A stretch of DNA of 64,000 nt from a virus (Duplodnaviria; Heunggongvirae; Uroviricota; Caudoviricetes). Made by a program: the position numbers and the translations under genes. Shown one piece after another: positions 60,474-60,568 of the stretch. The notes below the pieces were generated by a model. The model was not told the DNA's origin. It made no database searches and saw only the letters and a program-made list of their open reading frames with translations. The stretch's first letter is position 1. The number at the start of each line of letters is the position of its first letter. The stretch spans positions 64,001 to 128,000 of IMG/VR virus record IMGVR_UViG_3300049215_000772. The stretch is one strand, 5' to 3'.

Positions 60474-60568
60474 GGGCGGGTAGTATAATTGGGATACTGC
60501 GGCGAAAGTTGCAGTAGATTACGCTGGGGTTAAACTCGGAGATGGTGGTTCGAGTCCATCCCCGCCCA
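60474..60568 (+). ncRNA. tRNA-like RNA without a canonical anticodon loop
   Basis: perfect acceptor GGGCGGG/CCCGCCC, D arm GTAT/ATAC, T loop TTCGAGT; GAAA-tetraloop arm plus a 6-nt-loop arm in between. Confidence 0.75.

Follow-up and report, generated by a model that had tools for sequence, protein, structure and literature searches.

What does a phage gain from an RNA gene that has the outline of a tRNA and no regular anticodon loop? The question is raised by one gene in the window, the 64,000-nucleotide stretch of DNA analysed here, which comprises bases 64001–128000 of a 134-kb IMG/VR viral record (CheckV completeness 27%). The protein encoded just 3′ of this element has an identical copy on a 673-kb contig, and for this reason we take the record to be a fragment, about a fifth, of the ∼673-kb genome of a huge phage. 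The phage, like its relatives, comes from moss/peat samples. Coordinates prefixed G000 refer to the whole fragment, while L numbers (e.g. L110, L112) denote the loci of relatives compared with the element, L106 being the T4 locus. The element stands at the head of a tRNA cluster of about 20 genes, all on the + strand according to ARAGORN, which labels the element itself ‘tRNA-??? (agtt)’. The same record encodes a CCA-transferase-like (CCA-adding-type) ORF (G000 12983–14212), a tmRNA (G000 47560–47921, ARAGORN) and a LeuRS (G000 43156–45051), in which two stretches match the bacterial leuS model and the middle of the profile is missing; the enzyme is without the editing-domain region. A tmRNA identity for the element was rejected, since its 95 nt leave no room for a tag frame and the phage tmRNA lies elsewhere. 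About 4 kb 5′ of the small-RNA array, consecutive ORFs with E2-like, JAB and ThiF/E1 domains (window 52345–56083) form a ubiquitin-like conjugation cassette.

Anatomy of the element

A first-pass annotation had described the element as a tRNA body that lacks an anticodon, with perfect acceptor, D and T arms and two hairpins lying between the D and T arms. Its core idea is right, and the cloverleaf topology that it drew is wrong. The acceptor stem is indeed formed by seven Watson–Crick pairs, and the T arm, the GAAA-capped helix and the CTGGG/CTCGG helix with the loop GTTAAA are all present where that annotation had placed them (Table 1). Its ‘perfect’ D arm, GTAT/ATAC (60483–60486 with 60494–60497), did not hold up. 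This local stem shares bases with the foot of the 9-bp GAAA helix, and in the 16-row alignment described below it pairs in only 61.4% of cells, while its columns are paired in 100% of cells as part of the hairpin and the figure for the distal D stem is 90%. A fold with the local D stem is also 3.5 kcal/mol worse than the homology-supported fold with the distal stem. The two hairpins have different positions: the GAAA helix sits inside the D loop rather than between the D and T arms, and the second hairpin, which does lie between them, is the anticodon arm itself, preceded by G26, followed by a 4-nt variable loop and closed by a 6-nt loop. We also considered a class II reading, in which the GAAA helix would be the anticodon arm and the second hairpin the variable arm, and rejected it: the GAAA helix is enclosed by the distal D stem, whose pairs covary.

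Table 1. Positions of the element, its parts and its neighbours in the window
Feature	Position	Strand	Remarks
Three tandem sigma-70-like promoter matches	59926–59954, 60072–60100, 60160–60188	+	5′ of the small-RNA array
X1, hairpin-shaped small RNA	60318–60394	+	11-bp closing helix, z = −2.72; ends 3 nt before gene A
Gene A, tRNA-shaped	60398–60469	+	ARAGORN tRNA-Ile AAU, G at position 33; 4 nt 5′ of the element
Whole element	60474–60568	+	95 nt
Acceptor stem, 5′ strand, positions 1–7	60474–60480	+	7/7 Watson–Crick pairs with 60561–60567
D stem, 5′ strand, positions 10–12	60483–60485	+	Pairs with distal strand 60520–60522
D loop, 5′ part, with A14, A15, G18G19	60487–60494	+	A14 and G18G19 in 12/12 members
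Hairpin inserted in D loop, 9-bp helix and GAAA cap	60495–60516	+	Energy folding, covariation
D stem, 3′ strand, tRNA positions 23–25	60520–60522	+	Followed by G26 at 60523
Anticodon-position arm, 5-bp stem	60524–60539	+	6-nt loop GUUAAA at 60529–60534
Variable loop, 4 nt, AGAU (A44, U48)	60540–60543	+	Family alignment
T arm, 5 bp including one G-U, loop UUCGAGU	60544–60560	+	Direct pairing check, covariation
Acceptor stem, 3′ strand, and discriminator A73	60561–60567 and 60568	+	
X2, second X copy	60571–60646	+	z = −3.78; starts 2–3 nt after the element

The fold of the element is more stable than chance would give (z = −3.55), with none of 200 shuffles folding as well. In the minimum-energy fold, the GAAA helix is lengthened to 9 bp by taking bases of the D-stem 3′ strand that had been proposed, and the thermodynamic optimum of this particular copy omits the D stem, at −38.7 kcal/mol versus −37.8 kcal/mol with it. 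When the 22-nt hairpin is deleted in silico, ARAGORN recovers a 73-nt cloverleaf with the distal D stem and the 6-nt loop, which it labels ‘Stop|Leu (ta)’. The tRNA model RF00005 gave no match over 60474–60568, either at its gathering threshold (29 bits) or at E ≤ 10, and seven neighbouring tRNAs score 43–75 bits with it. The CCA end is not encoded in the element, the bases after A73 being CTT.

A family of tRNA-shaped genes with an insert in the D loop

A BLAST search of GenBank phages returned generic T-arm matches only and no relative of the flanking 8 kb, scans of IMG/VR with exact patterns from the middle and 3′ parts of the element returned nothing, and an 18-mer from the D arm found only two chance matches in IMG/VR, both inside coding regions. 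Since these nucleotide searches gave no orthologues, they were reached through the downstream DUF6847 protein, whose relatives in scans of IMG/VR and the JGI metagenomes share 55–59% identity and whose closer relatives, from protein search and contig look-ups, share 61–79%. In these closer relatives, tRNA-shaped genes A, B, C and D are strung together 5′ of the DUF6847 gene, along with an SRP-like RNA and a repeated hairpin RNA. The element is a member of family D, which has 12 full-length members of 91–159 nt, including three tandem copies in L112, all of them lying at most about 230 nt 5′ of the DUF6847 gene except that of L028. The gene belongs to a conserved paralogous family in a clade of huge phages. 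A functional link between the element and the DUF6847 gene was rejected because their adjacency is limited to a close clade: a tRNA-shaped gene lies ≤400 nt upstream of the DUF6847 gene in 16 of 71 loci, and several of these 16 look spurious. In L028 (4590–4990), a partial duplicate of the 3′ half of the family D gene lies downstream of that gene, and tandem repeats with units of 7 nt and 6 nt extend in long runs just before the DUF6847 gene.

The topology of the family was read from relatives that fold regularly. When constraints were placed on the acceptor and T stems alone, energy folding gave a regular cloverleaf for the L114 copy and for all three copies of L112. In the relatives, a 4-bp D stem (GTAC/GTAC, GCAT/ATGC or GTCT/GGGC) encloses G18G19 and then the inserted hairpin, and is followed in order by position 26, the anticodon-position hairpin, a 4-nt variable loop and the T arm. 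A covariance model, R1, was built on this cloverleaf with its D-loop hairpin, and it scores the 12 members at 45–103 bits and ordinary tRNAs at ≤48 bits, the latter aligning end to end with the hairpin deleted. The element reaches 103 bits as a copy in the training set, while untrained members score 45–59 bits. It has the three features of the family on which R1 rests, namely a tRNA chassis, an extra helix placed behind G18G19, and an anticodon-position loop that is short or capped.

Pairing was then evaluated on an alignment of 16 rows (the 12 family D members, three C-type paralogues and one A-type paralogue). On this alignment, which was fitted to the R1 model and hence favours the structure, 98.4% of cells pair versus about 42% with partners slid, and 24 of 29 pairs show changes on both sides, values that were reached in none of 500 shuffles. 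The acceptor helix, the inserted hairpin and the T stem pair in 100% of cells, with compensatory change in 6/7, 8/9 and 3/5 pairs, respectively; the anticodon-position arm pairs in 97.4% (5/5 pairs compensatory) and the distal D stem in 89.6% (2/3 pairs). Five of the 12 members (L110, L016, L027, L028 and L029) form no more than two standard pairs in the D stem. The independent energy folds and the slid controls argue that the pairing signal is real, and the element, as judged from its sequence and those of its relatives, is real and under selection.

The tRNA chassis around these inserts is preserved in similar detail. All 12 members have U8, A14, G18G19, a purine at position 26, A44, T54, C56, A58 and A73; position 55 is U except in L027, where it is C. 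The 15–48 pair covaries, being A-U in 11 members and G-C in L110. The first-pass claim of an intact elbow therefore stands, with U8, A14, G18G19, T54-Psi55-C56 and A58 conserved. The acceptor/T-arm stack of RF00005 type is present together with its tertiary core (U8-A14, 15-48, G18G19 with Psi55-C56, T54-A58), and the element seems to keep a complete tRNA chassis consisting of a 7-bp acceptor stem, A73, D stem, core, elbow and 4-nt variable loop.

In contrast to this constant frame, the D loop holds a slot whose contents span 18–103 nt over paralogues and orthologues. Compact members carry a helix of 18–25 nt after G18G19 with a GNRA or AAAA cap, while in L016, L027, L028 and L029 the slot is filled by multi-helix domains of 60–103 nt. 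The C family has a very similar GAAA hairpin at the same place in the D loop, which suggests an old gene duplication. Beyond the end of the window, a 138-nt oversized tRNA-shaped gene of the same phage (G000 131228–131365) has the same design with a larger payload: a GUGU/GCAC D stem surrounds a ∼60-nt insert after G18G19, and the anticodon-position arm is a capped 7-bp helix. Another oversized tRNA-shaped gene, of 151 nt, lies nearby at G000 131043–131193.

The variation at the anticodon position bears directly on decoding. A canonical tRNA has a 5-bp anticodon stem and a 7-nt loop with the triplet, and the element has a 6-nt loop. This loop, GUUAAA, recurs in L110 and in copy a of L112; two members have related 6-nt loops, copy b of L112 with GUAAAA and L114 with CUUAAU on a stem of 7 bp. 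Seven members (L107, L109, L112 copy c, L027, L028, L029 and L016) have a GNRA tetraloop instead (GCAA or GUAA), as does the truncated copy L026, and across the family the stem is 5, 6 or 7 bp long. Translation requires that a triplet be presented at a fixed distance from the acceptor end. Given this established geometry, a family in which both loop size and arm length vary is excluded from presenting one, so that the comparison upholds the earlier claim that the element cannot decode. Family D as a whole is accordingly predicted to be unable to decode, not to be a decaying pseudogene, and not to yield a tRNA upon hairpin removal, and we hold the structural and non-decoding parts of our explanation with high confidence.

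Two features of these loops call for separate comment. The canonical 7-nt loop UUUAUAA occurs in only two of about 25 D-loop-expanded genes (L114:2055–2158 and L115:2341–2447), and since D-loop hairpins and a UAU loop are found together there, a D-loop hairpin does not by itself exclude decoding. UAA or UUAA also recurs in the 6-nt loops and the GUAA tetraloops, and may be what is left of an anticodon loop whose length fell from 7 nt first to 6 nt and then to 4 nt. That GUUAAA is kept in three lineages could mean a sequence-specific role of the loop, which would fall outside the explanation that we favour.

Neighbourhood, maturation and competing explanations

Four sigma-70-like sites were found versus 0.6 expected from shuffles, and three of them lie on the + strand upstream of the array; the one closest to it is TTTACA-17-TAATAT. 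The same promoter motif is repeated upstream in L107, L109 and L110. Gene A and the element are flanked by two ∼75-nt copies of a hairpin RNA, X1 and X2, which were found as a repeat and matched to no family. An X2-type element also follows the orthologue in L110, and X-type hairpin RNAs adjoin tRNA-shaped genes in L027, L107, L109, L110 and L115.

Gene A itself has an orthologue in L110 with an identical anticodon arm. In putative counterparts, which share its D arm and variable loop and differ in array position, a long GNRA-capped arm replaces the anticodon loop (L016:325–415, L027:4177–4265, L107:3430–3524 and L109:3410–3508). A gene A-related gene in L114 and L115 has the UAU loop and D-loop hairpins. 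Loop–loop pairing between gene A and the element was considered and rejected, as at most three A-U pairs are possible by inspection. Between the last promoter and X1, the stretch at window 60200–60285 is structured. Its end consists of a hairpin resembling a T arm plus ...CCTCCGCACT, a 13-mer that recurs almost unchanged at the 3′ terminus of gene A; the stretch may form an acceptor/T-arm minihelix.

We consider it probable that the element gives rise to a stable, non-decoding RNA, processed like a tRNA, that acts as a tRNA mimic or scaffold through its acceptor/T-arm/elbow face and shows a module in its D loop. The RNA departs from tRNA in two ways: a GNRA-capped hairpin occupies the variable (beta) region of the D loop, and the anticodon loop is cut to 6 nt. 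It would be transcribed early, together with the other small RNAs of the array on one polycistronic RNA, from the tandem sigma-70-type promoters. Because no CCA is encoded and the phage has a CCA-transferase-like ORF, processing of the element by RNase P and a CCA enzyme is a reasonable inference, and what is established about tRNA maturation points to 5′ cleavage, 3′ trimming and CCA addition. The chassis would thus draw RNase P to 60473/60474, and the same cuts would both excise the RNA and set the ends of the flanking X hairpin RNAs. The conserved tertiary positions predict an L-shaped fold with the extra hairpin projecting near the elbow. In this form the RNA would present its acceptor/T-arm/elbow face to a tRNA-binding protein, as a look-alike or as a scaffold, and by comparison with its relatives would take no part in decoding.

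The explanation that competes best with a mimic or scaffold is that the tRNA shape serves only as processing punctuation, in the manner of a ‘t-element’: RNase P and a 3′ nuclease would cut at it, thereby releasing X1, X2, the SRP-like RNA and the DUF6847 mRNA, and the excised RNA would have no job. Punctuation by tRNAs is established in mitochondria and for MALAT1/mascRNA. The spacing of the array agrees with it, as X1 ends and X2 begins within 3 nt of the tRNA-shaped pair (Table 1), the same juxtaposition is seen in L110, L107, L109 and L027, and the + strand between the genes of the array is without a terminator-like site. Yet punctuation needs just an acceptor/T-arm minihelix and an elbow, whereas the element's family also keeps the D-loop hairpin and the anticodon-position arm by compensatory change (8/9 and 5/5 pairs), as well as the 15–48 and 26–44 contacts. 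An ordinary, useful tRNA would moreover serve equally well, and among the three tandem copies of L112 there is nothing to release between two of them. We therefore regard punctuation as the sole role as unlikely, if credible.

A second alternative, which we rate as rather unlikely, is that the element is an aminoacyl carrier, in which the chassis is charged by an anticodon-independent synthetase such as the phage LeuRS and the product is used or sequestered outside decoding. Bacterial LeuRS does not need the anticodon. In accordance with such a role, A73 is found in 12/12 members and A15-U48 in 11/12, the phage encodes the LeuRS with its two leuS-like stretches and absent middle, and the hairpin-deleted form is read as ‘Stop|Leu’. 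Against it, the acceptor stem sequence varies freely, with no G3-U70 or G-1. Nor does the D loop point to one amino acid: among 363 canonical tRNAs of these loci, its AATTGG sequence occurs in 7/19 Lys and 5/26 Leu tRNAs, and the canonical tRNAs most similar to the element share about 60% identity with it and are a mixture of isotypes. Leucine is thus a weak candidate for the parent isotype. An aminoacyl-transferase (L/F-transferase) gene was not found in the 134-kb fragment, about a fifth of the ∼673-kb genome.

The two ideas could also be combined, in that a natural tRNA scaffold might at the same time be chargeable by an anticodon-independent enzyme, for example the phage's editing-domain-less LeuRS. 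A73, A15-U48, the intact acceptor and T arm and the missing anticodon lead to this reading, which we judge quite unlikely. If it were true, the phage would hold a pool of aminoacyl-RNA that is unusable by the ribosome, which could donate to non-ribosomal aminoacyl transfer or act as a sink through which the phage manipulates how its host senses charged tRNA, and the D-loop module would address the RNA to a partner.

It is very unlikely that the element is a pre-tRNA from which the hairpin is removed like an intron to leave a working tRNA, either Leu UAA or an ochre suppressor. Oversized Lak-phage tRNAs were read as intron-bearing by Devoto et al. 2019 (PMC6784885), removal of the hairpin does yield the 73-nt cloverleaf, a distant relative has suppressor tRNAs, and the two relatives with D-loop hairpins and a canonical UAU loop could be taken in the same sense. 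But the insertion sits in the D loop and not in the anticodon loop, it is a plain perfect hairpin without a bulge-helix-bulge by inspection, and at 22 nt it is far below the size of a self-splicing intron. After its removal the loop still has 6 nt, and 7/12 homologues have a tetraloop in that place on stems of 5–7 bp. The intron mode of ARAGORN gave only an implausible tRNA-Ala with a 4-nt intron, and no RtcB was found in the 134-kb fragment, about a fifth of the ∼673-kb genome. In a 527-kb relative (L024:16793–16953), adjacent suppressor-type tRNA genes with anticodons UUA and CUA head the tRNA cluster, and they may be a sign of stop-codon recoding.

Finally, it is highly improbable that the element is a decaying tRNA pseudogene with chance hairpins, the outcome that the first-pass annotation had itself set against its idea: the anticodon loop is short by one base and the Rfam tRNA model does not match, but every helix is intact, 24/29 pairs are compensatory among homologues whose neighbouring protein is only 55–77% identical, the tertiary nucleotides are invariant and the homologues are not ordinary tRNAs.

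Comparison with known tRNA-like RNAs

The element was compared with known systems. It shares with RF00005 tRNA the 7/5 acceptor/T-arm stack, U8, A14, the 15–48 pair, G18G19, the T-loop, the 4-nt variable loop, A73 and the location in a tRNA gene cluster, and differs in its 22-nt D-loop hairpin, its 6-nt anticodon-position loop and the varying stem length within its family. T4 RNA C and RNA D (species 1 and 2; rnaC, rnaD), which come nearest among described RNAs, are likewise non-decoding RNAs within the tRNA cluster of a large phage, where they are stable and of unknown function. RNA C ends in a canonical T arm and an acceptor-like stem around a non-tRNA middle, and differs from the element by inspection of its sequence in an imperfect acceptor stem (5/7 pairs); nor could we draw for it a cloverleaf core that includes a D stem and an arm at the anticodon position. 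At E ≤ 0.01, R1 finds six T4 tRNAs in the T4 locus and neither rnaC nor rnaD (2909–3047 and 3054–3172).

Engineered tRNA scaffolds of the Ponchon and Dardel type use a tRNA frame for processing and stability and display a structured insert. The element and its family share the constant frame and the variable insert, here in the D-loop slot; unlike the engineered scaffolds, the element is natural, its insert lies in the D loop rather than replacing the anticodon stem-loop, and that insert is only a GAAA hairpin. In YrlA Y RNAs (RF02553), too, a tRNA-like module imitates the D/T-loop elbow and takes no part in decoding. The tRNA-like part of YrlA is closed at its acceptor end and opens into a Ro60-binding stem, whereas the acceptor end of the element is free, its ends forming the tRNA acceptor stem. 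The RF02553 model matches 60423–60521 at 21.2 bits (E = 0.4) against a threshold of 69 bits, straddling two genes, and no TROVE domain (PF05731) turned up in the 134-kb fragment, which covers about a fifth of the ∼673-kb genome.

Natural tRNA clusters of unusual design provide two further comparisons. Lak megaphages have oversized ‘intron-containing’ tRNAs in their tRNA clusters, whose anticodon can be assigned once the insert is removed (PMC6784885). Like the element, these are oversized tRNA-like genes that defy classification and stand in huge-phage tRNA clusters; they differ in that the element has its insert in the D loop and does not retain the anticodon loop. Mukai et al. 2017 described irregular tRNA polycistrons, and allo-tRNAs with an additional stem-loop, from forest and peat soil communities, with some of the irregular tRNAs being charged but unused in translation (PMC5389517). 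These are again polycistronic, irregular tRNA-shaped RNAs with an added stem-loop, yet they have 8/4 or 9/3 acceptor/T arms, the extra loop between the acceptor and D stems, and anticodons that are kept (PMC5389517), in contrast to the 7/5 arrangement, the hairpin inside the D loop and the absent anticodon of the element. None of the systems compared joins a D-loop hairpin with a sealed or shortened anticodon-position loop, and we found no description of a D-loop-hairpin, anticodon-less tRNA architecture in the literature and Rfam.

Phage tRNA clusters are usually read as codon supply or as spare parts against host defence. Here, a set of cluster genes keeps the tRNA shape by compensatory evolution, loses the anticodon and gains a D-loop module, and such upkeep without an anticodon suggests that huge phages put the tRNA fold to a second use outside translation. 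What RNA C and RNA D of T4 do has been asked for 50 years, and the family bears on that question. It would also provide engineered tRNA scaffolds with a natural equivalent, and it suggests that annotating oversized ‘tRNA-???’ calls in megaphages by default as pseudogenes or intron-bearing tRNAs is unwarranted. The system is compact and testable, with a 95-nt RNA, a phage CCA-adding-type enzyme and a LeuRS on one contig.

The loci compared here hold other tRNA genes of unusual form. In related huge phages, otherwise normal Lys and Glu tRNAs carry a GNRA-capped hairpin as a long variable arm, which is unusual for these isotypes (L016:3518–3602, L016:7195–7276, L018:11546–11631 and L018:11865–11947). 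Huge-phage contigs from the DUF6847 search also contain tRNA-Leu genes of only 72–75 nt without a long variable arm (L020:15067–15140, L020:15224–15298, L056:6648–6721 and L079:3261–3332). On a TARA ocean contig, a 252-nt gene (L041:841–1092) has normal tRNA ends, a normal D arm and an AT-rich insert of ∼180 nt, which may be a self-splicing intron in a tRNA.
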